Position numbers and translations under genes: made by a program. A DNA stretch of 64,000 nucleotides from Psammoneis japonica (Eukaryota): positions 124,001 through 188,000 of the forward strand of contig QPGO01000012.1 of the NCBI GenBank assembly GCA_008632985.1, read 5' to 3'. Numbering within the stretch: position 1 is the first letter of the stretch; each line of letters starts with the position of its first letter. Of the stretch, positions 15,530 through 60,550 are shown in pieces. The notes under the pieces were generated by a model. That model was not told the origin of the DNA. It was given only the letters and a program-made list of their open reading frames with translations, and made no database searches.

Positions 15530-15548
15530 CTACAAGTTGTGAATCTTC

Positions 15549-17440: not shown

Positions 17441-18149
17441 TCGAGAGACCTGGTTATGTTCGAGTATTTGAATACAGTACCCTCACGGAAGATTGGGTTC
17501 AACTTGGCACTGACATTGCCGGAGAAGATGATGGTGATGGCTTCGGGCAGTCCGTTTCTCTGTCAGATGCTGGTGACATTCTCGCGGTAGGAGCCACTGG
17601 GGTTGACACGAGCAATGGAAACGATTCTGGATCGGTTCGATTGTTTCAATACGACCGAGTCACATCATCATGGATCCAGCTTGGACAGACTCTGATTGGC
17701 AAATCTGATGAGGATGCGTTTGGCTGGTCTGTCTCCCTGAACAGAGCGGGTACGGTGGTCGGAATCGGGGCGTACTTGAGACGCGATAGCCAAGTATCTG
17801 TCTATGAATTCAATGCTGCATTGAAGGCGTGGGAACCAGTGGGTGACCCTCTTTCCGGAAGAGATGACTTTGGGATCTCTGTTTCTCTAGATGACACTGG
17901 TTTAATCATAGCAGTAGAAGCAAGTCGAAGGGATGAGAGGGTGTTGGTTTATGAATACGACCGTTCGACAATGAAGTGGACGCAGCGCGGTCAACCAATT
18001 GTGACGAATCAGCTTGACGATCAATTCGGTAAGTCGGTGTCATTGAGCGGAAGAGGAAATGTCGTGGCAATTGGAAGCGAGAGACACAATATTAACGGCT
18101 TTAAAAACGTGGGTCAAGTTGGAATCTTTCAATACGACACAAGCACACG

Positions 18150-38041: not shown

Positions 38042-40126
38042 ATGGAGATTATAGACGCAAACAAGAATGAGTCGTCCACAACCAGGAAGAGCGCGATAGA
38101 ATATGATCCGGGTAGTCCCTCGTCTCTGTCCTCATTTAATTTCCCAAACAATGTCAGTAAAAAGAAGCAACTCTCACAATTGCCCAATGAATTTCTCAGT
38201 GAAGACCCGACAAGACCACTAAAATACATCGATGACCATGGAGAACATTACAAATACGCCTTGAAGCCCATGTTTTATTCCGTCATTTTCATTCTCATGG
38301 TGGAGCTGCTGGAGCGATTCTCGTTTTACGGGATCAACTACACACAAGCATCGTACTTGACGGGGGCATACGACAAGCACTGGAACGCCGACATGGAAGC
38401 TGTGGAGGCTTCTAGTTATGTTTCTGTTTCGACTGCGATTGCATACACGGCTCCCTTCCTCGGGGCCTTTTTAGCGGACACAATACTTGGCGAATTCAGG
38501 GCGATTCTTTTGGGGTCGCTCGTCTTGTACCTGCCGGGCCTCCTTTGATCGCCATGACGACAGTTCCTGGATTGTTGGGAGATACATTTAATAAGACGGC
38601 ACTTCGAATTGGATTGCTGGTGCTCTGGCCGATTGGTACTGGCATTGTCAAGTCGGTTGTAAATGTGTTTGGTGCAAAACAACATCATCCGATTTTGCAG
38701 GCTTCGCTGATTGAATCTTATTATGTCAATTTCTACATGTGCATCAATATTGGGGCCTTGGCGGGAGGTATCATTGTCCCAATCATGGCTCAACATAACA
38801 TCACCCTTGCCTACTTTATTCCGGTGGTAATTTTGAGCTGCGGGGTGGCGTGTTTTGTAGCTGGGTCTTCTCGTTATGTGAGAGCCAGACCACATGGTGA
38901 TTTGTTCTCCAAGGACTCGGACCCATCGGATAACGGTCTTGGTCTCTCAGTCATTGCCCGTGTTTCCATGTTGATTGTTCCCTTTAATATTGCGTACAGC
39001 CAAATGGCAACCACCTTTATCGTGCAGGGAACTGTGATGAAACGAGCGTTTGGGTTCATTGATGCGGCCTCCATGAACAATGCAGATGCCGTCAGCGTTT
39101 TGCTTTTCGGGTATCTTGTTGGTAACAATTTTATCCTGCCTTGGCCAAGAGAGGAATCAAGCTTTCAACGACTCATAAGTTTTCTATTGGAAGTGTTTTG
39201 GGAACCATGGCGATTGGATGGGCGCTAATGGTGGAGTATAAAATTCATGCAGCATATGAAAGTCGCGGCGAAAAAGTGAACATTCTGTGGCAGTCGTTGG
39301 CTTACATTCTGATTGGCGCCGGAGAGATATTTGCCGTTTCAGCGGCATATGAAACAGCCTTTACCGTCGCTCCAGTGAAGAAAAAAGCATTGGCGAGCGC
39401 TGTGAACTTGTTTTCGTAGGTGGGATTCCAAACATTTTGTGTATTGGTCTTTACAATATATGTCACGTCTGGTTTAAAACAAAAGGGGAAACGCAAACAT
39501 AACGGATTTGCATGACTATGCTACTGCTCAAGTCGCCAAGTACTTTTGGGTTCTTTTGGCATTGCGCTCTTTGGAGTCATTATTAATCTGCTGCCTTTTG
39601 TACGAAACTGGGTCGCGTCTGTTGAAGAAATCGCTTCGGAAGCCATCAAGACTCCCATGTCGACTCCTCGCTCGACGCCGAAATTGCAGCAGCGACGGAA
39701 GAACGACAAATGGATAATGAAGACGACGAGGAAGAGCCATTGCTACAGGCGGCCAAAAAGCATCAAGATTACCTCAAGTATGGAAGCGGTCCGGTCCTGT
39801 ACAAGCACGGATCCATGAGGGCAGGTATGTTCAACAAAATGGTAAAACCAAAGCCTGTGTCCCTGACGAGGTATCAAAAGTATTTGAAGTATGGAAAAGG
39901 ACCGGTGCTTTACAAAGCAAGTTCAATGAGGGCGGGCGTCGAGCTTGCCCATCCTCACGAAGCGAGTAGGCCATCGAGAACTCCGCCACGAACGCCACCG
40001 AGATCTGCGGAACCACCGACCAAGCGAGAGAAAGGAAGAAGGCGGATCACTGCTGGTGTGAAATATCTACTCATAGAAACCGCCTGCTATTCTTTAGTTT
40101 CCCCAGACAAGATAATAGAATGTTAG
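38042..40126 (+). CDS. POT/PTR (NPF) proton-coupled peptide/nitrate transporter, split by several indels
   Basis: ELLERFSFYG (ExxER motif), GAFLAD.ILG, GTGIVKS, FYMCINIGAL, WQSLAYILIGAGEIF. Confidence 0.88.
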
Positions 40127-40729
40127 ATATTTTTATGGAGCTGTTTGCATAAAGCGGTACATCTACAGTGTAGCATGTCAACGAAGCCTACTAGAGACCA
40201 TCGGAATCCATCAATGACCTGCTAGTAGCAATGGCACAGTGACGGCGCATGTTGAACATTTCACCCACGAACGTCGTAAAATCTATCTAAAGTAGTTAAT
40301 GTAATTGTTCTACCGACACCACTAGTAGCAACGGTTTCGGTATCATCTAGTAGAGGTCAGCCCTATCAGAGGCGTTGAAGCGTTGTCCTCCAGCCTGAGT
40401 TAACATGCTCTCAGTGAGGCGAAGGCGGCTTCCTGATCGGACAATGTGGCCGTACTCTTCGTACTCGAAGAGTTCGTTCTCTTTCTCCATTTGACGGATT
40501 CTGGCGACATCCGCCTCCACGACCTTGCCATCCGCATGCATAAGTACCACACTACCAAGACCAGTGAATAAATCCACAGTGTAATCGACCTGTGATCCAA
40601 CCTTGACACCGGTTTTGAGGTAAACAATCGATGGGAGCTCCTTGATAACGTCGAACCCAGGGGTGCTCTTGACTTTTCCACGCGAAAATGAGACTAGGAT
40701 AACTTCTTGGGCCTGAAGCTTTGAAGGGA
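40073..40729 (-). repeat. Direct duplicate of the 3' end and downstream flank of the ATP-grasp gene (55168-55809)
   Basis: QEVILVSFSRGKVKSTPGFDVIKELP...SDRADLY* is nearly identical in both places. Confidence 0.93.
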
Positions 40730-41357
40730 TTCCAAGCCACAATGGAGTTGCTGTTGTCGCTCTTGAGGAACGCGAACACATGAACGTGGACAACGCATCC
40801 CACCATCCCGAAAGCATGCAAGAAGTCTAAGTCGCTCCCATGTGACAAATTGGTGGAAGCGATTGTCACGAATGATCGTTAACCACCATAATTTGTTTCT
40901 GTCTGGTGTCTGAACCAAGCCTTACTGTGGCTAAGCTGTAAACTAACTCTGCCATATGCTATTTGGACGTACGTGGAGCCATTTATTCATTTCGCAAGAG
41001 ACCATTCGGGGATGTCCAAATGCACCTGGGAGTCAATCGACAATAGCACTCCCCTGAATCGGTAATTTATGGATGGCAGAGGCAGTTCGTTAGTCCTTGC
41101 GTCAAGATTGTCGCTGGCGAGCCGAACGAATTGGGAAATGGATGGATTGTGTCACAGTTCGTTCATTTCTCGCATTCCAATACTAGCTAGGCTGTTGCAG
41201 TCATTGGCCGGGACACACCTTATCTACACTACAAAACCCAAAGTTACTTCAGGAAAATATGCATAGCGTCTAGGGTCGAATCGGTCTCTTGAAAGAATGA
41301 TACAGTTAGGGCTCGGGTCGCATCTTACCTTGACTAGATTGGATTGTCTATAAAAGA

Positions 41358-42293
41358 CTAGGAGTGCTTTGACTGTTTAGCATGAGCCTTGGTTGTCTTG
41401 GAGGACTTAGCTGTCTTGGAGGACTTAGCTGTCTTGGGGGACTTAGCTGCCTTGGAGGACTTAGCTGTCTTGGAGGACTTATTCTCACAATTCTCTCCGG
41501 TGAAGCCAGGGTGACAGTGGCAGGTGTAACCATTCACTCCATCTTCACACGCTCCTCCATTCAGGCATGGGTTCGACAAACACTCGTCAATGTCAATCTC
41601 ACAAAACGTTCCAGTGTAGCCAGGTTCACAGTTGCAGGTGTAGCCATTCACTCCATCTACACACTCTCCATTCTGGCATGGGCTCGACGCACACTCGTCA
41701 ATGTCAATCTCGCAAGACGTTCCAGTGTATCCAGGGTCACAGTTGCAGGTGTAGCTGTTCACTCCATTTACACACTCTCCATTCAGGCATGGGCTCGACG
41801 CACACTCGTCAATGTCAGTCTCGCAAGACGTTCCAGTGTAGCCAGGGTCACAGTTGCAGGTGTAGCTATTCACTCCATTTACACACAATCCATTCAGGCA
41901 TGGGCTCGATGCACACTCGTCAATGTCAGTCTCGCAAGACGTTCCAGCGTAGCCAGGGTCACAGTTGCAGGTGTAGCCATTCACTCCATTTACACACACT
42001 CCATTCAGGCATGGGCTCGACGCACACTCGTCAATGTCAATCTCACATAAAGTTCCAGTGTATCCAGGGTCACAGTTGCAGGTGAAGCTGTTCACTCCAT
42101 TTACACACTCTCCATTCAGGCATGGGCTTGACTCACACGCGTCCATTTCACTCGTCTTGGGAAACACGAGGAGCCTCGGTTTCGTGGAAGGGGGCTTCGC
42201 CAAATCCTTCATTCGCATGCCAAGATGGGCCGTCGCCGCCGAAGGAAGAAGAAGAGCCGCCGTGAAGAGGAGAAAGTGGCTTGGACGTGTCAT
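41358..42293 (-). CDS. Secreted protein: signal peptide, RxL motif, six tandem Notch/fibropellin-like EGF repeats, Lys/Ser-rich KxxK tail
   Basis: [36 protein letters not shown] repeats (111 bp unit); tail [31 protein letters not shown] from an 18 bp tandem repeat at ~41392-41480. Confidence 0.93.
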
Positions 42294-42529
42294 GGATTGG
42301 ATGTGAAAGAAAGTTAGTTGCAGATTGTTTCGATGTTTGTGTGATTTCAGAATTGCGTGATTCCAGATTGTTGCGCTGCGGCGCGCAAAAACCCGGTACC
42401 TGAGTGTAGCACGAGCACTCTCTTTAGCTGCTGCATGGTAGATTAGCAGGGCCTCTCAAGCTAGAGAGCAGCTAAGCTCTAGCTACAGTAGAGCTCGAGA
42501 GTAGAGAGTAACATGCTGTAGAGTGTTTC

Positions 42530-45500
42530 CCGAATGTGCATTTTGGTTGGACACAGGCACGTTCCCACCCTGATGATTTCGAATTTACGGTTTACGGGCG
42601 TCAGGCTGGGAATGAATTCGAGCAGCAAAAAAGATCAAAATCACATGTCGAGCTCGGCCAGCACAGCACCACATTGTTTGCAACACTCTCTGCTGAAGCT
42701 GGAGTGACACCACAACCTTGTCGGTGACAATTGTTGTCCATTTTGCAATTGCTCTGCGGCAACTCGAGCTCATGATGACACCAGCAAAGGTCAGAAGGAA
42801 AGCATCCAATGTCCAATCCACTGGCAAGGCACACAAAACAATGGTGCACAGCAAGACCACAGCATGCAAAGCTGCCAAATGAAATTTTCACACCATGCAA
42901 GGTGCCAAAAGGTGCCAGACTTAAACTCTTGTGGCTTGGCAATGGCCCAAATCCATTTCAAAGAGCAACAAACACAGAGCAAGTCACAGAGAAGGGCTGC
43001 ACACAACAGAGTGAGGCACTGCAAGGCACACCACTGACACTGTCATGCAAAAAATTGACCCCCACCACCGCCATTGTCCTGACTTGTCACAAGGTCAATG
43101 AAACAAGCACGCACAGCTTTCTTCATTGTCACAATTCTGTCACCACAGAGCACAAGCCTTGTTGTTGTTGATGTGACCAAAATTCTTGTGTTCTTGACTC
43201 TTGGTGCCATCAATCAAATAACAACCTGGAGCACACACCAAAGAATCACCTCAATGTGACATCAGATCACACAGTCCCGTGACCATTCCACATCAAGTCT
43301 GCAGACGCACGCATGGTTTGTGAAGAATCCCAATGCAAAATCTGAACAAGAGAAAGGAAAACATCAAAAATGCCATTGGTCAACATGGTTGTCACAAGCC
43401 ACAACAACAACAACAAATCAAAATTCTGACAACTTGGTCATGTCAAGAGCAGTCTTGTTGACCTGCGACTGCATTCTTGCCTTCGCAGATGGGACGGTCA
43501 TTCATGTGTAAACGGGTCAATTCATGGCAGCCATCATGGTTGTCATGTTGTGCAGATCAGAGAAAGATAAATGGGTGAGCTTGTGATGTGGCATGTTTGA
43601 GCTCCCAAAATGCCAAACTTGCCGTGAAAATCACAAAAAAAATTTACGATGACCAATCCTCATAATTTGCTGGCAATTTTGGCTGCAAATTGATGGACAG
43701 AAAACAGACTTGCATTTTTCTTGTGCAAGAGTTTCCACAGGAATTTTGTGCAGCAGAATGAAATTGTGTTCATTTTGCAGCCAAAGCCATCAGGGTGGGA
43801 ATGGGCCCAAAAGCAGTCTCCATGAGAAAGTGCACCAGAGCCACAGACTCCAGGTCAGCAGTCTTAGAAAATCAAACCAGGCCCATTTTATCTTCCAAAG
43901 CTGCTGCTTGCTGTGCAAATTTCTGTGTGCAGTTCAGCAGGGGGACAACCAGCTGGAGTGATTCGACCAAAACATCTTTTTTCTCTTTTGTCAGCCATCC
44001 GAATTTCTTTTGCTTTTTGTTTTGACAGAAATGCCTCGCGGGCCATCATGGTGAGTGCACCATTTTGACGTCATCAGCATTGATGTGGGAGATTGCATCA
44101 TTGCACAAACATCTCTGGTGTCCCTGTCAGAAGGAGTCTGTGGCATCACACAACTTCCCAGTTTTGGCTTGCTTGAGAGTGGGTCATCTTGGCACCTCTC
44201 ACTCTCTCTCTCTCTCTGCAAGCATCACTTTGCTGTTTGCTGCCACAAAGGTGCCCAAGACCTCACTGGCAGAGGCTCATGACAAGAATCATTCATTTGC
44301 TGAATGACTTGAGATCTGCAAAGGTGACTTTGATGGTGTTGTCCCCAGAAAAATTGCCTGGGAGTGGGTCACAACAGAGGGATCAAGCAGCTCCTCCTCT
44401 GCATCCCTGGCATGCTCCACTTCAGCAAATTCCCACAATTTGACTGCACATCATTTCTTGTTGCATGCAGGCAGCACTGCAGAGAGAAAACAGAAGAAGC
44501 TCACAGCATGCTGAAGACAAGTGTTGACATTTGCCATGCAACACCAGCAACAGCTGCTCATGAGAAGTGCACATGCCTTGGTGAAGGCCAGGTCCTTTGC
44601 AATGACAGAGAGCTTAGATGCTGCAAATGGAACAAAGCAGTTGAAGTGCAAAATTCAATGTCTTCATTTCCTGCACCTGAGAGAGCTGACTCTTTCACTT
44701 CCAAAGCACAAGCTGTGCTGCGGTCTCTCCCCACATGCACCAGAGTTAAGTCCAGCTACAAATGAGCTGCCACCAACCCTTGCTGCTTTGTGCAACAAGC
44801 AGACAAAGCTCTGTCCATCACAAGAGGCTCTTGATAAAACAGCAAAGCTGGTGGTGGAAGGCTGTGCACCAGCTGCCCATTTTCTTTGAGCCTTGCTGGC
44901 ACAGAAGTCCACCTCATCACTGCAGGAGACTGTGTTTGAGAGCACTCTGCCATCAGAGTTGGAGAAGAGACTGTTGCAGTTGACCTGCCAATGGTGCTTG
45001 CCCGCTCCCAAGTGCACACACTCTAGTGCAATGAAGAAGCCAGCCATTGACACACAACAAAGAGCAAGCTGCTGCACATCCTGCACCACACAACAAAGCA
45101 CACCAAAGGTGCAGACAGCACTGCAAAACACTGAAGACAGCCTGCAGTGCAGATGGCAGACTGTCATTGCTGCAAGATTGGTGCACCATCAACAACAAGA
45201 GGCAGAAAGGATGGATGAGCTTCAGGAGACTGGCTCTTCTAGAGAGTGCACAGTTGTTTCTAATGAGACAGTCATCAGAAAGTTGTGGTTGCCACTGTGC
45301 TTTTCCTTGTGATGGAGAGCAGCAGGGCCCCTGAGTCCTGGCAGAGCATGCTGATGGAAGATGAGCAACTCAGGGGTGAGACAAGGGCAGGCACCAGCCT
45401 TTTGGCTGGTTTGGCACCTGATCATGTGTGCCACAACAAACAATGCAACAAATGATGCGCCACAATCTGTGTGTGCAGTGTGTCAATTTGCTCAGCTCAG

Positions 45501-48500
45501 GTGCTGAGTCAAGCAAGCAACTGGCTGAGCATGTGTTGTTCATTTGAGTGCAAGAATGGTGGCTGGTGTGTTTCCCATGAAAGGGTGCAGTGTTTGGCAC
45601 AGTGTTTCTGTTGTGTGTTTTCAAAGTGGCTGGGCTTTGATTGCAACAGATGTCAACTGATCCCCACTCAGTGCTCCCTTTGACACTGCTCTTGTCTTTT
45701 GTTGGGTGTTGTGCTGCCTCCGACTTCACAAAAAAAAGAGAAAATGGGGCTCAAATTTCCTCTTGGTTGTGTGGCATTGCACTTGTGCTCATGAATGAAG
45801 GAAGTGCTCTCGTGGTCGAGCAAGTCAATCTTGTAAAACTGGGCTGGTTTAATTTTCCTGATCACTCCACAGCAGGTGCTGCAGTTTTCTGCAGCAGCAA
45901 AATCAACAGCTTTGCCCAATTGGACCATGGTGGTCAAGTGGTCATCAACATCATGACAAAAAAGTGTCATCAACACAACACATGCGACTCCTCACAATGC
46001 ACCAATGAAGTTGCTCTCTGCATTTTAACTGGCGAAACAGTGTGGATCAATGGCCCATTCAAGCCTGGCATTTGGAACAATCTTGTGATTTTTCAATCAG
46101 TGTTGAAGACTGAACTTGAAGAGGAGGAACATGTGGAAGCTGATGATGGATGCATGGGTGAGGCTCCGATGGATGCAAAGTGCCCAATGAGTGTTGCTCA
46201 TCCCAGAAAAAATGAGGCAATGCAGCAGCACATGCACATTCAACAGGAAACCATCATTGAAGGTGCAGCATGTGACTGTCATGTGCATGTCTGCAATTGT
46301 GTGTTGCTCACATGTCAATTGCACCACAGTCGTGGATGCGTGCAAAGGACAGAACCATCACACAGAGTTGATCAGGAGTCAAAAACTGCAACTGCGATTG
46401 ATGGACAAAGTTGACATCTCACACATCAATGCCAATGGCATTTGGACCATCTGTTGTCAGCCACAATTGTGTTCTCCAAAAGGCCTTTTGTCTGCAGAAG
46501 CAGCACAGAAGCTCTGGGCCACTGAGAACTCATTCGGAGAAACCAAAAATCACAGAGCAAAATTTGATCTCACAATTTTCACTTTTTGCATTTTGTTCTG
46601 CTTTTGTTCACACTTGTTCTTCAAGCACAGTGCAAAGGCTTTAAGAATTGGGAGATGCTGAACAAGAAGAAGTTCAGCTGCCATCCCCTCTCCAATCTCT
46701 AAGAAGAAGCACGCTGATGTTTTCAGGGCAGTTGTGCTCTCCTTTTTCAGAAGAACTGCTTCTGTTCCAAAACCATTGCTGGCAGCAACAAGAACAAATG
46801 CTGCAGCAGCAGTCATCATCATCCAGAAATGCTGTGAGTGTCACACTCTAGAGTTGTGAATGAAGGAAAAACTGACGGGCACCAAAATTTGCCAGATTTG
46901 GCTGCAACCAGCTGCATTGTTGATTGCAAAAACCAGGGTTGCACAAATCTGTTTGCAATTTGCATCTGATGCCCTGATCAAAATTTTTCAGTTTTGTTTT
47001 GCACCCAAAGAATGAAATTTTGAGCTCTGAGGGTGGGCCAGTTGATGAAAAGTTTGTGCATTGACAACCCAAATTACAAATGCCAGGGTGCACTGACAAA
47101 AGCTTCTAATTTTGCTGTTTTGTTGACACTTGGACCAAGATCACTGAAAAAGATCCACTCCACATCCTTCACTGTGTGTGCTCTGCACTTGAACAAACAC
47201 AGAATTCAGCCAAAATTCAGCTTCAGACAGTTGACTTTTTTGCCAAAACTGCCATTTCCCATGGAGCCACATTGCCATTTGCCAAAAAATGCCATGAGCA
47301 AACAAGATCAATCTTTCCTGGAGTTTTTGCTTTTCTCCATTCCAGGTGACCTCTCTGCAGCCATTTGGAAAGATGAGCAAAATGACAAGCACCACCAGAT
47401 CTTTCACAAGACACTGCAAAAAGAGCCAACCACCAGCGCCGGCCACATCACCCACCATGGCAAGCAACACGCAAGCAAAACACCTGAAGAGGCTGGTCAC
47501 AGGCCCACAACAAGCCCTTGTGATGATGTTGTGAGACAATGAGCTCACTTCATCTGACATGGGGAAAGAATTGTCCTCCAATGGATCAAAAAATCACACA
47601 AACCAAAGCCTGTGAAAGCAGCAGTTTGTCTTGACAAGTGCATCTGCCAGTGCATTCCTGCCAAGGAAGGGAGACAAAAGGAGCCTGCACCCAGAATCTC
47701 CAGCCGCAAAAACACCACATTCCACATTGGGCCCAAAACCATCATTCAATTTTGGGACAGCATTGACAGAAATGGTGGCCAAAGGGTGAGGGGTCTGTGA
47801 CAAGCTGTCGGTTGCTGGCTGGTGCTTTTCTTCTCAAGATGTGCCAGAAAATGCATTGCAGCAATGTGGGCAAACATGTGTTTTCTTCTGTTCATTTGTC
47901 GTGTGTTGTTCCAACCAATGAAGCTTGCTTCAACATGTCAAACAGCAGAGTGAGGGGGGGTCTGCCAGATGAAAAATTGCACCCCAGCTTGCTGAGCAAT
48001 GCTTTGAGGTCAGAAACAATGACGACAATGACCTGTTTTGGCACCTCTTGCTGACAGACTTCTGCCATGGCATGATTGGACTTGCTGCAATGAACAGCAA
48101 GCTCAAGAAGTGCTGCTGTGCATGTGCCAGTGTCTGGGCAACAAATGTCTGCAATTAGATTTTTCTGCATTGCAACATTTCATCCATGCCGGGCTGACAG
48201 TTGGAACACATGCTTGGCATCCCAGCACTGGCAACATCACAATGCCCATCCATGCCTGTGGCAGTTTGGGCTGGCTGTTGGAATGTGTGCTCAATGCTGT
48301 GGGGCACAAAATGTCTGCAATGAGATTTTGCGGCCACTGGCACCCACCACTGTGACATTGTAACTTTCGTCCATGCCCAGGATGCCACATTTTCAATCTT
48401 TGTGCATCTCATTGCAAAATGTTTCCTGGTTTGGGTGAAAAAGGATGAAGCAACAAAGCAACACTGCGTGCTTGTCAAACTTGTTTGTCTCTCACTCTTG

Positions 48501-48740
48501 CCATAGTTGAGTGGACCTTGAGAGAACATCCCAGCCACAGTTTGAGGACTCACCAAACAGGCAGAAGGATGGAACAAAGTTCCAGCTTCAATGCAGAGGT
48601 TGTGCATGCTGGACGCTCTTTTTTTTTTAGTTGCTCAATCAGGATCTTTGTGGCACCCAAAAGCTCTTCAATGTGTCCGATCTTTCCGGTCCATCGGAGG
48701 ATGAATCTTTGTCCGAATTAGACAACTGAGCACAAAAAAA
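42530..48740. mobile_element. Nest of decayed TA-depleted transposons, including a Harbinger/DDE_Tnp_4-like transposase remnant (+, ~45750-46260)
   Basis: EVALCILTGETVWINGPFKPGIWNNLVIF...VEADDGCMGE (ancestral ADDGY.GE); ~6.2 kb almost devoid of TA and CG. Confidence 0.75.
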
Positions 48741-49095
48741 TCACGTGTGGTGCTTCTAGTCAACACGCGACTAACCCCTTATGGGTGGCTGTGGTTGGGG
48801 GGCTCATGGTCGCTAGCTGTTGGCGGTGTTGCAAAAGATCTGGTACTTATTTTACGTTTGTTTCTACGTAGAGGTTCTAGAGAGGTCGAACAGATAATAG
48901 CAGCATTGAGAAAGCAGCAAAAAACTCCGTGTTGAAAGATAGATCTCGTTCGCACGTGACATTTTTTTGGCAAACATCAATAAACAAATAGCGAGGTACG
49001 AGGTAGGGACGGAGACGACTGGTGGAGGAGTCGTCGTCGTTCATGAGAGAGAGGCATAGCGAATCGCCTCCGTTTTGTGTAAACCCGTCGCCGAT

Positions 49096-51225
49096 ATGGC
49101 ACGCCACCGAGGGAGGCACAACAGTGATAATGCAAAGGAACGAGCTGGGCATGACAACTTTACGAATGTGGGGAAGACAGCCACGTCCTTGCCTATCTAT
49201 CGTCGAAGACATGGCGCTCCATCGTTGATGAAGCTGGCGGTTACTCTTATTACTGTATGCATGCTGGCTGCAACCACTTTCTGGGCTTCTTCCCTTTCTC
49301 ACTGGGACAAATGGGATCACGATAATCGCATGCATCTCATCTTTATTCTGAAAGGCATCGGGAAGGATAAGTTGAGGCGGAACCTTGATATTGCTGTCGG
49401 ATCCCTCCTGACGCACTTGGGACCACCCCCTTTGACAATCCATTTTCTTGCCGACGAGGAAAGCTGGATCTATGCTCGAGGACGATGCCTCAAGTTGCAT
49501 CAAGAGAGCAATGCTCTAGTGGACTTTGTGTATCATAATTTGGACAATGTCATCTCACAGCTTCGTAAAAACGGAACGTATTCAATCATTGAGAACCTGC
49601 GAAAACTCTTTTGCAAGGGATATACCAATGATGATGTTTTCCTCCTTTCTACCATGCTGCATCATGTGCTGCCTGTTCCAAAAGTGATCCAGCTGGACTT
49701 GGATATCATGTTTCATGAGAGCGTCCAGGGCTTGTGGAGTCTCTTTGACGACTTCAGTCAGGAGAGCATAATGGGCATTGCATCGGAAATGCAGCCCGTA
49801 TATCGCAATGTCATGTGGGAGTATCGCAAGAGTCACCCTAGTGTTGGTGCACCAGGAAAAGGGGCGGGATTCAATTCGGGCGTTCTGCTGCTTCATCTTG
49901 ACCGAATGAGAGAATCGAGTCTCTACAGTGCACATTTGGAAAACCCGACGTCACTCGTGAACAAGTACCGCATGCACAAGGCTCATTTAGGTGACCAGGA
50001 TTTCTATTCATTGTTGGGCTGGGAACATCCAGAGCTCTTTTATCGACTTGATTGTGGATGGAATGTTCAACTGTGTACGTGGTGGCGAGATCACGGAGGA
50101 TATGCCAAGCAACAGGAGTTGTTCAATCAGTATCATGATTGTGTTAGCAAGACAAAGCTATCGCATGGTAATTGTGCGACATACATCCCTAGCAGTGCCA
50201 TGTATCTTGAGCCGAAAGAGCAAAATCATCGGGCTCCTAAAAGTGATGGCAAAGATATCAACTCAGCGAACAATTTACGCACAGAGACAGTGTTTCAACT
50301 TCAGAAAGTGAATTATGCTCGACACAAGATGATCCCCAAAGATGGGATACACGTCGCAACAACTATATGTGGGGATCGTTTGTTCCTTGAGGAAGCATTG
50401 GTTATGTTCAGGTCAGCACTCATGTCAACAGAAAGTCATCTAATCTTTCATGTTTTTGCCGAGGACTCCCTTCATTCTCAGTTTCAAAAGCGCGTTGACG
50501 AGTTTATCCCAGATTCTTTCCACCCCGACTTTGATCTTATTCTGTATTCCGTTGAGTACCCGCCTGGGATACACGCATCTGCCTGGAAACGTCTTTTTAA
50601 ACCGTGCTCTAGCCTTCGAGTATTCTTACCATATCTCATCAACGAAAAGGTTGCCAAGAATATCATTTACGTCGACACTGACGTTCTCTTCATCCGACGT
50701 ATCGATGATCTCTGGGCATTGTTTGCTTCCTTCCGCCCTGCCGAGATTGCTGCCCTGACGCCGGAGCACGAGGTAGACTTCATGAGCTGGTACAAGCGTT
50801 TCGCGAGACACCCGTACGTCCCTCCGCGTGGTGTGAATTCTGGCGTAATGCTCATGATGTTAGATCGCATGAGGGCAGATGACTGGAAAGCAAAGATGGT
50901 AGACTACCTCTCCACATATCGGCTTAACATTACCTGGGGTGATCAGGATTTGATCAATATTTACTTCCACATGGAGCCAGACAAGTTGCGGATACTGCCT
51001 TGTCACTGGAACTACCGACCTGATCACTGCCAGTATGGGGAAAACAATTGTCCCTCGGCCGAGCATGATGGTGCTTTCATTTTGCACGGAAACCGCAAAT
51101 CCTTTCATAATGTGACTCGATACCCTCAGTTTGCTTCGATGTATAACGAAATATCATCACTTCAGTGTGAGAAAAGGCCATGCACCAATGTGACGTCTTA
51201 TGTGCTCGGGAGCAGGGCCTGTTAG
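49096..51225 (+). CDS. Type II membrane tandem GT8 glycosyltransferase: XXYLT1-like domain fused to a GXYLT1/2-like domain
   Basis: Domain 1: QLDLD, EMQPVY, GFNSGVLLLHL, HLGDQDFYSLLGWEHPELF, WNVQLCTWWRDHG. Domain 2: WKRLFKPCSSLRVFLP, YVDTDVLF, PEHE, WYKRFARHPY, GVNSGVMLM, ITWGDQDLINI, WNYRPDHC, HGNR. Intronless. Confidence 0.93.
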   Translation: MARHRGRHNSDNAKERAGHDNFTNVGKTATSLPIYRRRHGAPSLMKLAVTLITVCMLAATTFWASSLSHWDKWDHDNRMHLIFILKGIGKDKLRRNLDIAVGSLLTHLGPPPLTIHFLADEESWIYARGRCLKLHQESNALVDFVYHNLDNVISQLRKNGTYSIIENLRKLFCKGYTNDDVFLLSTMLHHVLPVPKVIQLDLDIMFHESVQGLWSLFDDFSQESIMGIASEMQPVYRNVMWEYRKSHPSVGAPGKGAGFNSGVLLLHLDRMRESSLYSAHLENPTSLVNKYRMHKAHLGDQDFYSLLGWEHPELFYRLDCGWNVQLCTWWRDHGGYAKQQELFNQYHDCVSKTKLSHGNCATYIPSSAMYLEPKEQNHRAPKSDGKDINSANNLRTETVFQLQKVNYARHKMIPKDGIHVATTICGDRLFLEEALVMFRSALMSTESHLIFHVFAEDSLHSQFQKRVDEFIPDSFHPDFDLILYSVEYPPGIHASAWKRLFKPCSSLRVFLPYLINEKVAKNIIYVDTDVLFIRRIDDLWALFASFRPAEIAALTPEHEVDFMSWYKRFARHPYVPPRGVNSGVMLMMLDRMRADDWKAKMVDYLSTYRLNITWGDQDLINIYFHMEPDKLRILPCHWNYRPDHCQYGENNCPSAEHDGAFILHGNRKSFHNVTRYPQFASMYNEISSLQCEKRPCTNVTSYVLGSRAC

Positions 51226-51622
51226 TGTTACAGTGACAAACATTTTGAAGCGAAAGTCTTTGGATGCTGATTCTTCATGAAATGCTGGAGCAAAGAAGCT
51301 CAAGTTCAAAATTCTCTGGAAGCGGTGACCCATGGATTAGAGCGGACTGTTCACCGCATGGCTGGAACCCTCGCACTCGCCGGCGGCACGTTCACGGCAT
51401 TCAATGGGCTTCTTCAATCCGACCAAACCGATTGTTCTCTAATTTCCTGAATCAATAAGTAGCTCCTGCTAGCTAGATATCCGAAGAGAAAGAGGCCGAA
51501 AGGAAACAGGCTGGTGAGAGTCGTCTACTCTCTAGAGTAGTAGTCTACCGGTACGACTCTCTCTACTAGAGCTAGAGCTCTCTACTCTAGCTCTACTCTA
51601 GCTAGAGAGAGTACAAGTAGTA

Positions 51623-52131
51623 CAAGTAAAAAACCGGTCTCTGTCCTCTTCAGACCGGTTTGTCCTCTTCCTATTTCCTCGTACTTTCGCCGTGTTGTTT
51701 TTCATAACGCTAATTTAACGCTTACACAGTTTTACACAGATTTACTATCAAAATTTAGTACCAATAAAAAACCGAATTGAGTCCTTATGACCGAATTGAG
51801 TCCTTATCGTAGAAATGTATGGACTTTCTACGAGTGAGATTTGGTAGCTTTCAACACATCATTCAACAATTCTCTACGTAAATGCCGTACAAATTCAACA
51901 GAGACCGAATTGAGTCCTTATCGGGCGAAGGATTGTTGAAATGTACACAAATTTCGATAGTGAATTGTTGAAAATAATAAGGACTCAATTCGGTTTTTTA
52001 CTGGTACATTTACACAGAAACCGGCTGTCCTCTTGGGCTGGCGAAATCTGTGTAACGTGTGTAGAAAATATACCAATCAATCGCGTAGAAACTGTGTAAA
52101 AAATGAAGAGGACGAACCGGTTTTTTACTTG
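51623..52131. mobile_element. Nested MITEs with TA TSDs (outer 51623-52131, inner 51761-52004), Tc1/mariner-like
   Basis: Outer TIR CAAGTAAAAAACCGGT..GTCCTCTTCA; inner TIR CCA[A/G]TAAAAAACCGAATTGAGTCCTTAT; each flanked by TA. Confidence 0.85.
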
Positions 52132-52424
52132 TAGTAGTAAGTACAGTACGTACCGTACGTGCCAACGGGTCGGCGGAGGGACGCCTCATTTGTGAAGACT
52201 TACTTACGTACTCGCGCGCACGCGAGGCACGCGTTGCGGTTGGGAGACTGATCTGTGATCTCGGTCAGAGTGCAGAGTGCAGATGAGACGATGACAGCGC
52301 GTTGCTATGTTGCTGTGATCGTTCTTCCTTGCTGTTGCTTGAACGTGGAATACAATCGATGACTTGGACGCGTTGAATGCCTTGCTGAGACGGAATCGAT
52401 TTTTGCCGTGCACTCGTCGATCGA

Positions 52425-53693
52425 ATGACGGCAGTCTCTAGCAGCAGAGGAATGGTGCTTGTACACTCGCTGGTGCTAGTCTGGTGCTGCATGATCTCTT
52501 GCCTTTCGCTGACGGCTGCAGTGGAGACGCTAGATGATGTTTCCTTCTCGGACACCACCATCAGCATGCTCATCGAGACGGCAAGGGAGGAATACAACGA
52601 GTCAGAATCCTCGCAAGATGAGCAACAAGTGAGCCGTGACGGCTTGACGTTTCCGTCCGAACTGATTCCGCCTTATCGGGATGTTATTCGAGCCGACCTT
52701 GCGCCTTGGTTAAAGCAAGGTATATCTAAGGAGCTTCTGGATGGTGCGAGCGGCCAAGGTGTCAAGTATCAGATTGTCGACGGACGACTCTACCGGCAAA
52801 AGGAATGTATGTTTCCAGCCCGCTGCAAGGGGATTGAACACTTTCTGTTCGAACTGATGGAGGACGGTCTCCAGGATCTGGAAGTGATTATCAATGTGTG
52901 GGACAATCCGCGCATATACAGGACGAGAGGGTCGCCAGCGCCGCCGCTCTTATCATTTAGCAAGACTGATCAGTTTCTCGATATCATGTATCCTGCATGG
53001 ACATTCTGGGCAGGAGGACCGGCTGTGCGGCCCATATATCCATCGGGCCTCGGTCGATGGGATCAGTATCGCCAGCTACTCATTGAGAAAGCACAAGAGT
53101 TCCCATGGGAAAAGAAAGACAAAGTTGCATACTTTAGAGGGTCGCGAACGTCGGCTGAACGTGATCCACTCATCTTACTCAGTCGCACAGAGCCGGATCT
53201 GGTCGATGCATCCTATACAAAGAATCAGGCTTGGAAGTCGGATGCCGACACTTTGGGCGAGCCCGCCGTGGAACCGGTCCCTCTTGTTGATCATTGTAGC
53301 TTTGCCTTTCTCTTCAACTTTCGTGGTGTGGCCGCATCCTTTCGGTTCAAGCACTTGTTCTTGTGCAACTCGCTGGTATTTCACGTCGGGGAGGAGTGGC
53401 AGGAGTTCTTTTACCGAGCACTCCGGCCGTGGGTGCACTATGTGCCAGTAACCTATGGCATGAAGGAAGTACCACAGTTGCTAGAGTACTTTAAACAAAA
53501 TGAAGATGAGGCCAAGAGGATTGCAAAGGCGGGGCGTGATTTTGTTTTAAATCATTTACGAATGGAAGACATTACACTATATTGGAAGGCTCTTCTTGAG
53601 AACTATGCCAGCTTGCTTCGTTTCGAGGTGAAGAGAGATTCTTCATTGTTGGAGATCTCCGAACCGGTGGCAAAGGACCGTTTCGAGTTATAA
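52425..53693 (+). CDS. POGLUT1: Protein O-glucosyltransferase POGLUT1/Rumi-like (CAP10/GT90)
   Basis: Signal peptide; CMFPARCKGIEHF, DIMYPAWTFWAGGPAV.PIYP.GLGRWD, FRGSRTSAERDPLILLSR, YTKNQAWKS..DTLG, LFNFRGVAASFRFKHLFLC; C-terminal KDEL-like RFEL. Intronless. Confidence 0.93.
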   Translation: MTAVSSSRGMVLVHSLVLVWCCMISCLSLTAAVETLDDVSFSDTTISMLIETAREEYNESESSQDEQQVSRDGLTFPSELIPPYRDVIRADLAPWLKQGISKELLDGASGQGVKYQIVDGRLYRQKECMFPARCKGIEHFLFELMEDGLQDLEVIINVWDNPRIYRTRGSPAPPLLSFSKTDQFLDIMYPAWTFWAGGPAVRPIYPSGLGRWDQYRQLLIEKAQEFPWEKKDKVAYFRGSRTSAERDPLILLSRTEPDLVDASYTKNQAWKSDADTLGEPAVEPVPLVDHCSFAFLFNFRGVAASFRFKHLFLCNSLVFHVGEEWQEFFYRALRPWVHYVPVTYGMKEVPQLLEYFKQNEDEAKRIAKAGRDFVLNHLRMEDITLYWKALLENYASLLRFEVKRDSSLLEISEPVAKDRFEL

Positions 53694-54029
53694 CGTGGCT
53701 ACGATGCGCGACGTTCCAAGCCACAATAGAGTATCTGTTATCACTGTTGAGGAAAATGAACACATGCATATGGATGATACAGTACTGTATCTCCCATCCC
53801 GATACTCAAGAAGTCGAATTCTCCGACACGATAAGCGAAGCTTTGTGGAAGCGATTGTCACGAATGCTCGTTCAATGATCACTTGTTTCTATACGATGTC
53901 TAAACCAAGCTTTAGTGAAGAATCGGGATTGTCCGCTCTTCATTCGTAGTTACAGTAGTAGTCTAGTCTACCTAGAACCGAAGCGACTACTGCATCTACG
54001 TTCTGGTACTGGAATTCACACACAGGTCA

Positions 54030-54930
54030 GCAATCTACACCACTGCCGACATCCACATGCTGTCATGAGGTGTTCTATCCAGCACCTGCACCCGTTCAGC
54101 ACCAAGCTCTGAATCAAGCTGACGAATCATCAAACCTGGCGTCTTCCTGTTAGAACACGCACCAAGACATGCACTGATGTTGTGAGAAGAGGGACAGATG
54201 GCATTGAACCTGGATCTGGCTGCCTGGACTGCCCGCCACCTCAGCAGAAGATAGAGCCCCTCTGGCTCTCACGAGAAGAGACAAGATCCACGGATCGTCT
54301 CATTCAGGTGAGGAAACCCAACAGCAAACAAGAGATTGCTCTGCAGCATGTTTCTCACTGTCTTTGTCACCCCAGCTGTCACAACAGCACAGTGGCCGGT
54401 GACAGTGCAGGAGCTGCAATGCAGCATGATGTTTCCTCTTGAGAAAGCATTTTTGTCTGTTCTTCATTGTCCGTGTCCAGGGACAGCAAGCATGGCACAA
54501 GAGCTGATTGAAAAATTGTGGCAGCTGTGCATCTTCAAAGAACAGCTCATCAGCCATGTCATCCAGCACAAAGCTCCAGGGCCAAGGGAAAAAACCAGAC
54601 CACAGACATGGCTGCTGTGGTGCCCCAGCAACCAGATGGCCAAGTCCGTTAGAGTCAACTGCAGATGACTGTCACACTGGCAATTGCACAGTCACTTGCA
54701 CTCATTGGCATGAGCCCACTGCCCAGCAGACTGCAAGTTTGCCTGGAAGACACAAGAGGCATCACGGCAAGGATTGCCACCAAGACTGTTCACTCAGCCA
54801 TTGATGCGCAATGGCAAGCTGACAACTGCCAAAATTTTGCTTGTGCCAATGCCACCATGACATGTTGTGTCAAACTGGTGGCTGGGCTCCAACCCGAAAA
54901 ATTACCTGACCAATTGGGCACAGCTGTGTC
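54030..54930. mobile_element. Short TA-depleted relic, unclassified
   Basis: Composition only. Confidence 0.4.
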
Positions 54931-55427
54931 AACGAGATACTTGTGGATCATAACACATCTCATTGGCTAAGCAATTCTTCGTGGTTGACAAATGAACGTC
55001 GGCGACGGGTTCACGTGTTGTTTTCTCGTGCTTTGGCGACATGAGCCAGGTTAGTCGAGTTAATCCCCGTACGAATCCTGCGGAGGTACTTCGAGCCACA
55101 AGCCTGTTCCTTGGTTTTCACCAGACAAATTAATAGCTCTGAGCTACAAGCGGAAACGGTAAGCTTGTAGAAACAACCGGCTTTTCCTTATTTTCACCAG
55201 ACAAGATAATCGAATCTTAGATATTTTATGGAACTGTTGGCAGAACGCGGTGCTTTCTACAGTGTAACTTGTCACCGAAAACTAGACCATCGGCGTCAAA
55301 CACTGTCCTGCTAACAACAATAGTGACGGCGCGTGTTGAACATTTCACCCACGAAAGTCATAAAATCTATCTAAAGTTCATGCAATTGTTCTACCGAGAC
55401 CACTAATAGCAACGGTTTCGGTGTCAT

Positions 55428-58419: not shown

Positions 58420-59086
58420 GGTGGTGTTTTTTGTAGCAGCAGTGGGAGGAGAAGTACTAAGCCTTGCTTCGGCGGTAGCAGCGTCTCGATGTTGTTTCTT
58501 TTTGACCCAACGCACAGCGAATGGTTCAGACGACATGTGAGAACAAATATCGTCGCCGAGGAAGCGTTTGAAAATTCAGAAATCGATTGGTGGGTGTTGT
58601 TTGGTGAGATGGCCACGTAAGAGACGTGAATGAAAAAAAGAGACGGAGTTGTTTGAACTTTCAATTTTTCTGCGAATCAAGATGTGGCGAGCAAATCGAA
58701 AAAAGATTTGCAATTTGAAATTTATACGAGATCGAATATAAACAATTCTCGAATTGACTGGCTGTCATCCATCTCCCAACGGTTGCATTCCCGAACTCCC
58801 ATAATCACGTGTTCTTCTCCATAAGTAAAATCGAATTATTTAGCCGCCTATTGCCTGCCTTTTCTGTCCTGCGCCTCACCCTCACATTTTGCGCGCAAAA
58901 TCGAAATCGCGTGGCAAGCGACCGAAGCTCGAAATTGCAACACTTGCACGTCGTCGTTTGAGATCCACACAGCATTCCCAACCATCAGTCTCTGGGACAG
59001 AGACTTGCTGCACTTGCACGAAAAGTGGTCGCTATTGTCACGTGTCTCGAATTTTTTCGGCTCATTTACTCCAAAAGACCGAAACC

Positions 59087-60550
59087 ATGGGAGGCGAATC
59101 AGGAATGGTCCACAGATGTGGATTGACGGAGATTATCATTTTCATCTTGGCACTTGTTTCTGGTACAGCATGCTCCATTTGTTCCAAGACAATGATGGAA
59201 CTGCACGGCATTGGGATTACCGGACAAGAAGAAGTGTTTGAAAAACCGATTTTTCAAACCTTTGGCATGTTTGTGGGGATGCTTTTTGGTTTGGTCATGC
59301 ATGCTGCCGTTGTAATCTTTCAAATTCCCTTTCCCGGATATGACTTTCCATCATCAAACGATACAGACATTGAACAGGAACTGCCTAAAAACAAGTATGC
59401 TACCGAATCCGATGCGCTGATTCCACCCAAGAATGGAGCCAAGCAGCAACTTGCTACTACGGTTGCTTCTCCTGCTCCCATTGCTCCCGACACGAAGGAA
59501 CCAATTCCGGTGTGGATGTACTTTTTTCTGGCAATTCCGTCCATTTTTGATTTGGGCGCCACTGCACTCTGCATGATGGGTCTACGGTATATTGATGTTA
59601 GTATCTACCAGTTGTTGCGTGGTTCGGGTATCATTTTTGTGGCCCTCATGAAACAACACATATTGAGAGACAAGCTGTTTGGTTTTCAATGGGTTGGCGT
59701 TTTTTGGAATGTTGTCAGTGTCTGTTTGGTGGGGTCTACCGCCATTCTTGCCTTTGACGCTGGATCGTCGGACGAAACCAAGCTATCGGGTTCACACGAG
59801 GGTGAAGCACTCTTGGGTGTTGTGTTGGTCTTATGCGGAGCGTTTGTGCAGGCATGTCAATTTGTATTTGAAGAAAAGGTCATGACCATGGATATTCCGT
59901 CGCCTCCCTTGCTCCTTATCGGTATGGAGGGATTATGGGGGACTGTGCTTTGCTTGCTTGTGGTGTATCCCTGGTTATTATCTGCCAGGTACCGATCATG
60001 GATCCTACGAAGACCCGTGGAATACTTGGGAAATGTTCCGAACCTCAACCACCATTCAATTCTCGTTCGTGGTGTATTTCCTGGCGATCTTTTGTTACAA
60101 CTTGTTTGCGATTCTTGTCACGTACATGCTAAACAGCGTGTGGCACGCCATTCTTGACAACTTTCGTCCCATTACTGTTTGGGGTACGGACTTGTTTACA
60201 TACTATGTCATTTACAAAGCATCTTCGACGCAGTTTGGTGAAGCTTGGACTCAGTGGAGCTATCTGCAGCTGGCAGGAATGGTGGTGTTGCTGTACGGGA
60301 CAGCCGTGTACAATGCACCGAATGCAGGATCGATCCTGCTCCAAGGCAAGTGGTGGGATTTCTTTCTTGACTTTCGAAGAGAATACCGTGAAATTGAGCA
60401 AATGGAGGAAGAAGCAAGCTGGATGCTCATTGGGAAGAAATGCAAAAGCAGTTCCTTGCTAAAAAGGGTACAAACTCTTTTTACGGGGAACGATCGCCCT
60501 TCCAATCCGTCCACACACAGGCCCTTCGTGGTCTAGCATCACCGAAAATT
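59087..60550 (+). CDS. SLC35F6-like DMT/nucleotide-sugar-transporter family membrane protein (indel near 59970)
   Basis: PIFQTFGMFVGM, IPSIFDLGATAL..GL.YIDVSIYQLLRGSGIIFVAL, QFVFEEK, LIGMEGLWG. Confidence 0.85.

Follow-up and report, generated by a model that had tools for sequence, protein, structure and literature searches.

In animals, Xyl-a1,3-Xyl-a1,3-Glc-O-Ser is built on the C1-x-S-x-P-C2 consensus by POGLUT1, then GXYLT1/2 and then XXYLT1, and the three or four genes concerned are separate, intron-containing and unlinked. Work on EGF O-glucosylation and its extension by xylose has dealt almost entirely with the regulation of Notch, Crumbs and fibrillin in animals. In what is available of a 2021 cross-taxon review, the EGF O-glucose/xylose glycans are listed as animal glycans. 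How does the locus described here, which lies in a 64-kb stretch of DNA (‘the window’, meaning the whole stretch that was analysed), compare? Judged from its sequence, it is probably a functional module for the O-glucosylation of EGF repeats in a unicellular eukaryote, likely a diatom, with two genes for enzymes and one for a dedicated substrate. With the animal Notch-type pathway it shares three enzyme families at orthologue grade with the same catalytic residues, the acceptor C1-x-S-x-P-C2 on calcium-binding EGF repeats and a predicted secretory-pathway location. It differs in having XXYLT and GXYLT on one polypeptide, POGLUT1 1.2 kb downstream and a substrate gene nearby, and in that the host is a unicellular alga and the window holds no Notch receptor context.

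An earlier note on this DNA had claimed three intronless neighbouring genes, and open reading frames without introns were found exactly so. The gene for P0001, a secreted six-EGF protein of 311 aa, occupies 41358..42293 on the minus strand; that for P0002, a tandem GT8 enzyme of 709 aa, 49096..51225 on the plus strand; and that for P0003, a POGLUT1/Rumi orthologue of 422 aa, 52425..53693, also plus, starting 1.2 kb downstream of the P0002 gene. The P0001 gene is on the opposite strand to that of P0002 and 6.8 kb from it, the intervening spacer (42294..49095) having no recognisable gene, with no Pfam family in the 10 ORFs scanned, and some repeated DNA. The cluster is bracketed by duplicated segments, one on the left (40074..40924, plus strand) and their partners on the right (within 53714..55809, plus strand): 40074-40729, inside which is a truncated 3′ copy of an ATP-grasp gene, matches 55168-55809 at 91% identity, and the partner of 40730-40924 is 53714-53914 (74%). 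Their presence on both sides points to past rearrangement. The absence of POFUT1 from the window was also borne out, none being present in 65 of the 94 stop-to-stop frames of at least 130 aa, and the other 29 overlapping scanned genes in other frames. A Pfam scan of the 64-kb window found no UDP-xylose synthase and no clear UDP-sugar transporter; there is a weak SLC35-like ORF at 58844-60154.

P0003 opens with a hydrophobic signal and closes with the C-terminus RFEL, the GT90/CAP10 domain between them being matched by PF05686 over residues 82-412 (E 2.2e-94; 317 bits, the cut-off being 24). Its proposed POGLUT1/Rumi-like identity is upheld by E values of 7.3e-129 with human POGLUT1 and 2.3e-121 with fly Rumi versus 7.6e-33 with POGLUT2, and its identity to animal proteins is 57–61% versus 43–46% to the main bacterial fusion proteins considered below. 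In the available text of PMC5543122, Asp133 of POGLUT1 is the catalytic base, Arg218 and Arg279 bind phosphate, Phe278 is also named, and Phe104, Arg107, Ala172 and Gln240 contact the acceptor. All eight (F104, R107, D133, A172, R218, Q240, F278 and R279 in human numbering) are identical in P0003. RFEL ends in -EL but misses the PROSITE ER retrieval pattern [KRHQSA]-[DENQ]-E-L, as quoted in the part of PMC7803782 that is available; the KTEL of human POGLUT1 is outside that pattern too, and in P0004 and P0006, which are closest to P0003, the corresponding termini are RNEL and KDEL.

P0002 starts with an Arg-rich tail and a single hydrophobic anchor (residues ~45-67), followed by two GT-A domains that Pfam marks as two GT8 stretches. 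The earlier note was right that GXYLT-like and XXYLT1-like domains are joined in one GT8 protein, though their order is the reverse of that in which it named them, the XXYLT1-like domain being N-terminal (residues ~70-372, 49303..50211, plus strand) and the GXYLT-like domain C-terminal (residues ~400-709, 50293..51222, plus strand). Among solved GT8 structures the best match of the N-domain is mouse XXYLT1 (PDB 4wlg_A, E 1.6e-58, query 109-366 against 46-305 of the 306 residues of the chain), the runner-up being LARGE1 at E 1.7e-15. LARGE1, a bifunctional xylosyl- and glucuronyltransferase, is a precedent for two sequential transferases on a single chain and like P0002 has two domains, of which its GT8 is the one that aligns to the N-domain; however, it pairs that GT8 with a GT49 domain where P0002 has a second GT8, synthesises a polymer on dystroglycan and resembles the N-domain much less than XXYLT1 does. 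The C-domain is 42–51% identical to named GXYLT1/2 over 82–100% coverage, and every named match among the 120 matches listed is a GXYLT; with generic bacterial GT8 loci its identity is mostly 22–33%, reaching 35–40% in short segments only. According to the portion of PMC9746966 that is available, the DXD motif and a His of GT8 enzymes serve Mn2+ and a Gln is catalytic. In the alignments these metal and catalytic motifs are kept in both domains: D-x-D at 201-203 (D201/D203), the Gln of DQD (Q301) and the His of HGN (H357) in the N-domain, aligned with the motifs of XXYLT1 and LARGE1, and D-T-D at 527-529, DQD at 615-619 (Gln 617) and the HGN His 664 in the C-domain, where DXD, DQD and HG are invariant across the 15 sequences of the GXYLT alignment. 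Taken with the conserved residues, the orthologue-grade matches argue for the domains being POGLUT1, GXYLT and XXYLT1, as originally proposed, and not generic GT8/GT90. Three proteins that had been candidates for the same tandem GT8 architecture, P0244, P0245 (Dimorphilus) and P0246, were rejected, their domains being GXYLT-GXYLT and not XXYLT-GXYLT.

The candidate substrate, P0001, begins with a signal-like hydrophobic segment. An RXL site, RLL at residue 40, precedes its six EGF repeats, and a Lys-rich tail ends it. The repeats (residues 53-269; 41487..42137, minus strand, with a 111-nt period) contain 36 Cys in six C-x4-C...C-x-C...C units, are matched by Pfam EGF in six stretches (E 1.9e-41) and also by hEGF and EGF_CA, and in five of the six have the calcium-binding prefix D-I-D-E. 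Two further claims about them held: C1-x-S-x-[PA]-C2, the O-glucose consensus, is present in 6/6, with the acceptor serines in CESSPC, four CASSPC and CLSNPC, and C2-x4-[ST]-C3, the O-fucose site, in 0/6. The motif map of P0001 also covered the EOGT and beta-hydroxylation consensus patterns. Repeats 1-5 are 87–96% identical in DNA, so the six sites amount to about two independent observations, not six; the sixth repeat, which has diverged independently, still has its site as CLSNPC. In six-frame translation of the 64-kb window C-x-S-x-P-C occurs seven times, six in the P0001 gene and once at 9109, while shuffled window sequence had 0.84 on average and never more than 3 (50 shuffles), i.e., outside the P0001 gene it is at chance level. 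The C-terminal tail (residues 271-311; 41361..41483, minus strand) has Lys at every third position, and windows with at least five Lys number 7 at a length of 13 aa and 16 at 14 aa; the pentalysine cluster for diatom silica targeting is, in the available text of PMC9650480, five Lys in 12–14 aa. With its predicted ER signal, RXL site and pentalysine cluster, P0001 has features of the biosilica-associated silaffins and cingulins of diatoms, and from its RXL site and lysine clusters it may be destined for the cell wall or silica. We know of no diatom silaffin or cingulin with EGF repeats.

What would the three proteins do together? From orthology with the animal enzymes we infer which sugars are transferred and in what sequence, as well as the ER location and the role of P0001 as main substrate. 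P0003, soluble in the ER lumen, would transfer Glc from UDP-Glc to the Ser of C1-x-S-x-P-C2 in each folded EGF repeat of P0001. Membrane-anchored, bifunctional P0002 would then elongate the glucose, its C-terminal GXYLT domain adding the first alpha-1,3-xylose and its N-terminal XXYLT domain the second to give Xyl-Xyl-Glc-O-Ser, after which glycosylated P0001 would be secreted, perhaps, given the RXL site and the Lys clusters in its tail, to the cell wall or silica.

That enzymes and substrate are functionally linked is supported independently by bacterial sequences, through both the fusion of the domains and the adjacency of EGF genes in 10/10 loci. GXYLT and POGLUT domains are fused, with or without XXYLT, in 40 proteins of the collected set. 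Bacterial fusions of this kind, from Acidobacteriota/Thermoanaerobaculia/Holophagales MAGs among others, have the three domains at 39–51% identity to those of the window. A Gammaproteobacteria MAG protein, MGK0304876.1, is an XXYLT-GXYLT-POGLUT fusion whose domain order is that of the window genes. In Acidobacteriota all 10 loci encode a fused GXYLT-POGLUT(-XXYLT) beside an EGF protein with C-x-S-x-P-C, the EGF and fusion genes sharing a strand in each and lying next to each other in nine, ~2.4 kb apart in the remaining one (L002); among control GT8 loci, with 1.08 Mb covered, 0/70 had such a gene. The bacterial fusions, which are uncharacterised and annotated as ‘glycosyl transferase family 90’ or ‘lipopolysaccharide biosynthesis glycosyltransferase’, differ in being a single protein of up to ~1050 aa in an operon-like setting that includes genes for an MFS transporter and an M14 carboxypeptidase, and their POGLUT domain, 43–46% identical to that of the window (30–36% in a divergent subgroup), forms a separate clade. 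Among 80 metagenome loci with POGLUT1 relatives, most on contigs of 1–3 kb, partner genes were seen nearby in one only, the 6075-nt contig L144, and no GT8 in the other 79. Within 6 kb L144 has an EGF fragment (CSSSPC, CISSPC), a GT90 ending SEEL, a 681-aa tandem GT8 colinear with P0002 and a gene for an NAD-dependent epimerase/dehydratase, and as in the window its genes are intronless; it differs in its far greater divergence (25% identity for GT8, ~40% for GT90), in that epimerase/dehydratase and in an O-FucT-like fragment, and its source could be a eukaryote or a virus. A scan of genome contigs for the P0002 locus, and one of viral contigs for that of P0003, gave no match. The novelty of the cluster that had been claimed stands in that a literature search of publication listings and text passages found no earlier description of one, and a term search of what is available of Gazave et al. 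2009 found no mention of Rumi; it does not extend to the type, which recurs in Acidobacteriota and in L144.

The trees place the domains differently, POGLUT1 falling in a eukaryotic clade, XXYLT grouping with bacteria and GXYLT being without a supported placement. In trees built without a POGLUT2/3 outgroup, P0003 is in a clade with animal and choanoflagellate POGLUT1. With two environmental sequences it forms a clade of its own (100/100) and, on the addition of 46 environmental sequences, this lay outside the animal plus choanoflagellate group, which speaks against a recent transfer from an animal at a support of only 86 (FastTree). The XXYLT domain groups at 99/99 with vertebrate and amphioxus XXYLT1, in a tree having no other GT8 subfamily as outgroup, and inside that group it and the bacterial fusion domains form a 98/98 clade in which its branch is 1.52 long; the GXYLT domain, on a branch of 1.62, lies among animal-type GXYLT without a supported sister. 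A clade of window plus bacteria was not rejected by AU tests for GXYLT (p 0.69) or POGLUT1 (p 0.79), but as the groups were chosen after the trees had been inspected these tests decide nothing. Movement of a bacterial operon into the alga is without support for POGLUT1, in view of the identities given above, and for GXYLT in the free tree, and is supported only for XXYLT. A giant-virus source was dropped on account of the low identity of viral GT8 loci, of which the GXYLT alignment found nine in viral contigs, at 22–29% in long matches and at most 36% in short ones. An atlas search with the GST turned up bacterial clusters alone and was no help for taxonomy. More speculatively, and with the balance tilting against it, EGF protein, POGLUT, GXYLT and XXYLT might be an ancient transferable cassette moved between bacteria and microbial eukaryotes as a linked block, Xyl-Xyl-Glc on EGF repeats then being a general stabiliser of extracellular EGF repeats rather than a Notch or animal invention, and in the diatom decorating a silica cell-wall protein.

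Pathway genes in an alga and in bacteria, in the alga with a single fused enzyme for elongation and a nearby substrate having a site in every repeat, separate the pathway from Notch signalling and suggest that it had an older function, in EGF folding or stability, and the bacterial triple fusions are Rosetta-stone evidence for the three activities working as a unit. The window, having two genes for enzymes and one for a substrate, may serve as a natural test system of minimal size; the lysine-cluster tail hints at a class of diatom cell-wall glycoproteins that had not been recognised before; and the compact fused enzymes could serve for making defined O-glucose trisaccharides.

Are the enzymes instead general ER quality-control glycosyltransferases for many EGF proteins encoded elsewhere, P0001 not being privileged, its proximity due to local rearrangement and its sites inherited with a recently amplified repeat? 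Near-identity of repeats 1-5 would fit a consensus that was copied rather than selected six times, as would the duplicated segments around the block fit such rearrangement, and the position of the EGF gene, on the opposite strand across 6.8 kb of repeat-rich DNA, and the lack of a visible GT8 partner in 79/80 metagenome loci, mostly on short contigs, are also in its favour. Nevertheless, it is unlikely given that adjacency of an EGF substrate recurs in 10/10 bacterial fusion loci and L144, that the independently diverged sixth repeat retains its site and that elsewhere in the window the motif is at chance level. There is also a rather small chance that the module glycosylates EGF repeats with a different glycan, either through a changed donor or acceptor of the GT8 domains (glucose, galactose or another pentose) or through direct xylosylation of di-serine sites by POGLUT1. 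Both GT8 domains are on long branches (1.5–1.6 changes per site), so their donor or acceptor specificity may have drifted; five of the six sites have the di-serine form C-x-S-S-P-C, which is discussed for O-xylosylation by POGLUT1 in the text of PMC5543122 that is available; and the scan of the window showed no UDP-xylose synthase. Orthologue-grade identity to xylosyltransferases, with DXD, Gln and His kept, and conservation of the same domain pairs as bacterial fusions weigh on the side of the Xyl-Xyl-Glc trisaccharide.

That animal or bacterial DNA was joined artefactually to algal sequence, a chimeric contaminant having been envisaged in the earlier note, is very improbable, even though POGLUT1 is so similar to animal proteins (57–61%), the window proteins are absent from the protein collections searched and the DNA runs found are from one sample, possibly the source of the assembly itself. 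In one of those runs (X1) 30/30 bins were covered, with a depth of 44–70 across the gene trio and on either flank; there are bridging contigs at 40681-41426, 47924-51986 and 51988-55453, so spanning both edges, and GC is 0.45–0.50 throughout. Even depth and bridging contigs, be they from that one sample, argue against a chimera. Unlike animal genes those of the window are intronless, and unlike the bacterial versions they have eukaryotic targeting features; the POGLUT1 clade shared with two environmental sequences and the diatom-style tail of P0001 are further points in favour of a genuine algal locus. Within the spacer of that locus, depth peaked at 305 in 42255-42905 and at 8470 in 46161-46811, and was ~55 elsewhere.

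Three uninterrupted ORFs, each complete from ATG to stop, make up the gene block: the gene for the six-EGF secreted protein P0001 at 41358-42293 on the minus strand (311 aa), that for the tandem GT8 protein P0002 at 49096-51225 on the plus strand (709 aa) and, also on the plus strand, that for the POGLUT1/Rumi-like protein P0003 at 52425-53693 (422 aa). The location claimed for them in the earlier note is confirmed. The EGF and GT8 genes are 6.8 kb apart, and as none of the ten ORFs scanned within that spacer matched a Pfam family, the three are consecutive recognisable genes, not tightly packed. Two stretches of the spacer are, from read depth, high-copy DNA. GC is 0.45-0.50 over the block and its flanks.

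Could the block be a chimera? All 30 bins of 39000-58500 are covered by Logan contigs of sequencing run X1, depth is an even 44-70 in the bins of the three genes and both flanking gene regions, and contigs span 40681-41426 (joining the left flank to the EGF gene), 47924-51986 (across the GT8 gene) and 51988-55453 (joining the POGLUT1 gene to the right flank). This speaks for continuity, though as the runs are from a single sample, perhaps the assembly's own source, it is a consistency check and not independent proof. In the 1.2 kb that separate the GT8 gene from the POGLUT1 gene, depth is raised at 51369-52019 (186 vs ~55), and a 31-nt inverted repeat is present (51758-51788 and 51977-52007), which together suggest a small repeated element. 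Direct repeats bracket the block, 40074-40729 being 91% identical to 55168-55809, and there is a second pair around it, 40730-40924 being 74% identical to 53714-53914; these duplicated segments show local rearrangement of some kind. The two repeat pieces are ordered differently on the left and on the right, and the left copy (40074-40924) includes a truncated 3′ end of an ATP-grasp (L-amino-acid-ligase-like) gene, a full copy of which is at 55431-57964 on the minus strand.

That P0003 is a POGLUT1/Rumi-like enzyme, as had been proposed, is well sustained: its matches to human POGLUT1 (E 7.3e-129) and fly Rumi (2.3e-121) are far above that to POGLUT2 (7.6e-33), Pfam GT90 scores 317 bits, and all eight residues of human POGLUT1 named in the available text of PMC5543122, i.e., the key residues Asp133 (the catalytic base), Arg218, Phe278 and Arg279 and the acceptor contacts Phe104, Arg107, Ala172 and Gln240, are identical in it. 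Among the best 120 of its 1212 database relatives, with 48-61% identity, most that have a name are annotated POGLUT1 or Rumi, the others being hypothetical proteins with the same GT90 domain. The N-terminus of P0003 is hydrophobic and its C-terminus, RFEL, is KDEL-like in the last two residues only, the protein's closest relatives ending in RNEL and KDEL; P0002 begins with an Arg-rich tail and then a single hydrophobic anchor, and the predicted targeting of both enzymes fits the secretory pathway.

Pfam finds two GT8 stretches in P0002. For the N-terminal domain the match is to mouse XXYLT1, along the entire catalytic domain (E 1.6e-58, vs 1.7e-15 for LARGE1), and the DLD, DQD and HGNC motifs of this domain, with roles taken from the accessible part of PMC9746966, align with those of XXYLT1. 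Proteins named GXYLT1 or GXYLT2 share 42-51% identity with the C-terminal domain (residues 395-709), which keeps DTD, DQD and HG, motifs invariant across a 15-sequence alignment. The pairing of GXYLT-like and XXYLT1-like domains described earlier was correct; in the chain, however, XXYLT precedes GXYLT.

In P0001 a hydrophobic N-terminus is followed, at residue 40, by an RLL (RXL) site and then, over residues 53-269, by the EGF repeats (Pfam EGF E 1.9e-41, six stretches). The earlier claims about its sites stand: the O-glucose site C1-x-S-x-[PA]-C2 is in all six repeats (CESSPC, four CASSPC, CLSNPC), and the O-fucose site C2-x4-[ST]-C3 is in none of them. Since repeats 1-5 share 87-96% identity at the DNA level, the full score for the consensus reflects recent amplification plus one older repeat. 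Outside the EGF gene, six-frame translation of the whole window yields one C-x-S-x-P-C site, the mean for shuffles being 0.84. Five repeats carry a D-I-D-E calcium-binding prefix, and five match the EOGT O-GlcNAc consensus, C5-x-x-G-x-[ST]-G-x-x-C6. Over the final 41 residues every third position is Lys, with at least five Lys in seven 13-aa windows. This tail fits the definition, in the available text of PMC9650480, of the pentalysine cluster that directs silaffins to diatom silica. Together with the RXL site and the Atlas cluster nearest to the neighbouring FG-GAP_2 protein, described below, it makes a diatom a plausible source of the DNA.

Is the association of such enzymes with such a substrate peculiar to this alga? 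In 1.84 billion representatives, searched in full with HMMER, 2258 relatives of P0002 turned up, and among the best 150 only one, the 1050-aa Gammaproteobacteria MAG protein P0364 (MGK0304876.1), aligns in one stretch over both domains (query 49-676, 43% identity). Its architecture, XXYLT-GXYLT-POGLUT, has the order of the window's genes. Among the related proteins gathered here that order is found in ten (nine in one 90% cluster, and P0281), GXYLT-POGLUT-XXYLT in eight, GXYLT-XXYLT-POGLUT in one, GXYLT-POGLUT in 21, GXYLT-GXYLT in three, an annelid model among them, and XXYLT-GXYLT alone only in the window. The proteins with two tandem GXYLT domains, P0245 (Dimorphilus gyrociliatus), P0244 and P0246, are either true fused duplications or merged gene models.

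When a GXYLT alignment was scanned against one genome per prokaryote species, ten loci with 45-51% identity came from MAGs labelled Acidobacteriota, Thermoanaerobaculia or Holophagales, whose contigs reach 8.4 Mb, and the other 70 were generic GT8. Every one of the ten fusion loci has a same-strand ORF with 1-4 C-x-S-x-P-C sites in the full EGF cysteine pattern, adjoining the fusion gene in nine and ~2.4 kb off in locus L002, vs none of the 70 control GT8 loci (1.08 Mb); Pfam confirmed EGF domains in all eight of these ORFs submitted. Genes for an MFS transporter and an M14 carboxypeptidase are frequent neighbours of the fusion and EGF genes. The ten loci share an operon-like set of MFS transporter, EGF protein, one or two GT8/GT90 fusion genes and zinc carboxypeptidase M14 (e.g., L007:1057-9900, L003:9332-16423 and L009:5726-14925), and their fusion proteins have N-terminal signal- or anchor-like segments.

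One of 80 metagenome loci with POGLUT1 relatives, L144 (6075 nt, GC 0.44), has a similar gene set: an EGF fragment bearing CSSSPC and CISSPC sites, a GT90 gene whose product ends in SEEL, an NAD-dependent epimerase/dehydratase, an O-FucT-like fragment (E 3.3e-5, below cut-off) and a 681-aa tandem GT8 protein colinear with P0002 at 25% identity. Its genes are densely packed over 1-6075, and it may represent an ‘EGF glycosylation island’ of wider scope, from a eukaryote or virus. Scans of viral contigs found no close match. Six other metagenome loci (L119, L120, L122, L126, L137, L153) encode a well-conserved POGLUT1, 50% identical to P0003, on contigs as long as 46 kb, of GC 0.34-0.36 and with homopolymer-rich neighbouring proteins, and so POGLUT1 is present in other protists.

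How the enzymes came to be shared is approached through the trees. P0003 clusters with its closest environmental relatives, P0004 and P0006 (100/100), inside a star-like radiation that includes animal and choanoflagellate sequences, the bacterial domains forming a long-stemmed clade of their own. In a tree enlarged by 46 environmental sequences the P0003 clade falls outside the animal and choanoflagellate group (support 86, FastTree), beside other environmental lineages with GC from 22% to 65%, and this argues against a recent transfer of POGLUT1 from animals. The XXYLT domain of the window groups with bacterial fusion domains in a 98/98 clade (branch 1.52), pairing weakly (88/66) with P0364. 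The GXYLT domain (branch 1.62) has no supported sister, the bacteria being their own 97/99 clade. AU tests did not reject joining window and bacteria (GXYLT p 0.69, POGLUT1 p 0.79), for groups picked after the trees had been inspected and involving long branches. Our reading is that the window enzymes belong to a lineage common to protists, animals and some bacteria; exchange of some kind between bacteria and protists is likely, in one direction or the other and possibly block-wise.

From orthology, P0003 would act in the ER and glucosylate the consensus serine on each folded EGF repeat; of the two domains of P0002, GXYLT would add the first xylose and XXYLT the second, and the product would be secreted and possibly incorporated into the wall. 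That enzymes and substrate work together is a predicted function for which the bacterial domain fusions and repeated substrate adjacency are independent genomic evidence. Orthology, consensus and bacterial recurrence thus support, with amendments, the earlier interpretation as an EGF O-glucosylation cluster; the linkage of enzymes and substrate holds, but it is not confined to this genome. The chemistry and enzyme families are already known from animals, and a 2021 review, in its available text, describes these EGF glycans as animal. Probably new here are a non-animal host for the pathway genes, the XXYLT-GXYLT fusion, the linkage of enzyme genes to a substrate gene and its recurrence in bacteria. 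The literature searched, openly available main texts seen in part, yielded no report of the pathway in diatoms or bacteria, and Rumi is absent from the accessible part of Gazave et al. 2009.

Some other genes of the window merit mention. A plus-strand ORF at 58844-60154, 5 kb downstream of the POGLUT1 gene, is weakly similar to the SLC35F, nucleotide-sugar transporter and EamA families (E 7e-5 to 7e-4), and its product could supply UDP-sugar to the ER lumen. A Copia-type reverse transcriptase (18445-19962, minus strand; RVT_2, E 9e-38) adjoins a region at 20-26 kb that is richer in GC (0.53-0.55) and in which the ORFs lack Pfam matches. FG-GAP_2 repeat genes form a tandem family at 11236-18156, with 11236-13136 being 82.5% identical to 15537-17441, and the nearest Atlas cluster to the FG-GAP_2 protein (score 0.92) is 95% Eukaryota, most commonly Bacillariophyta.
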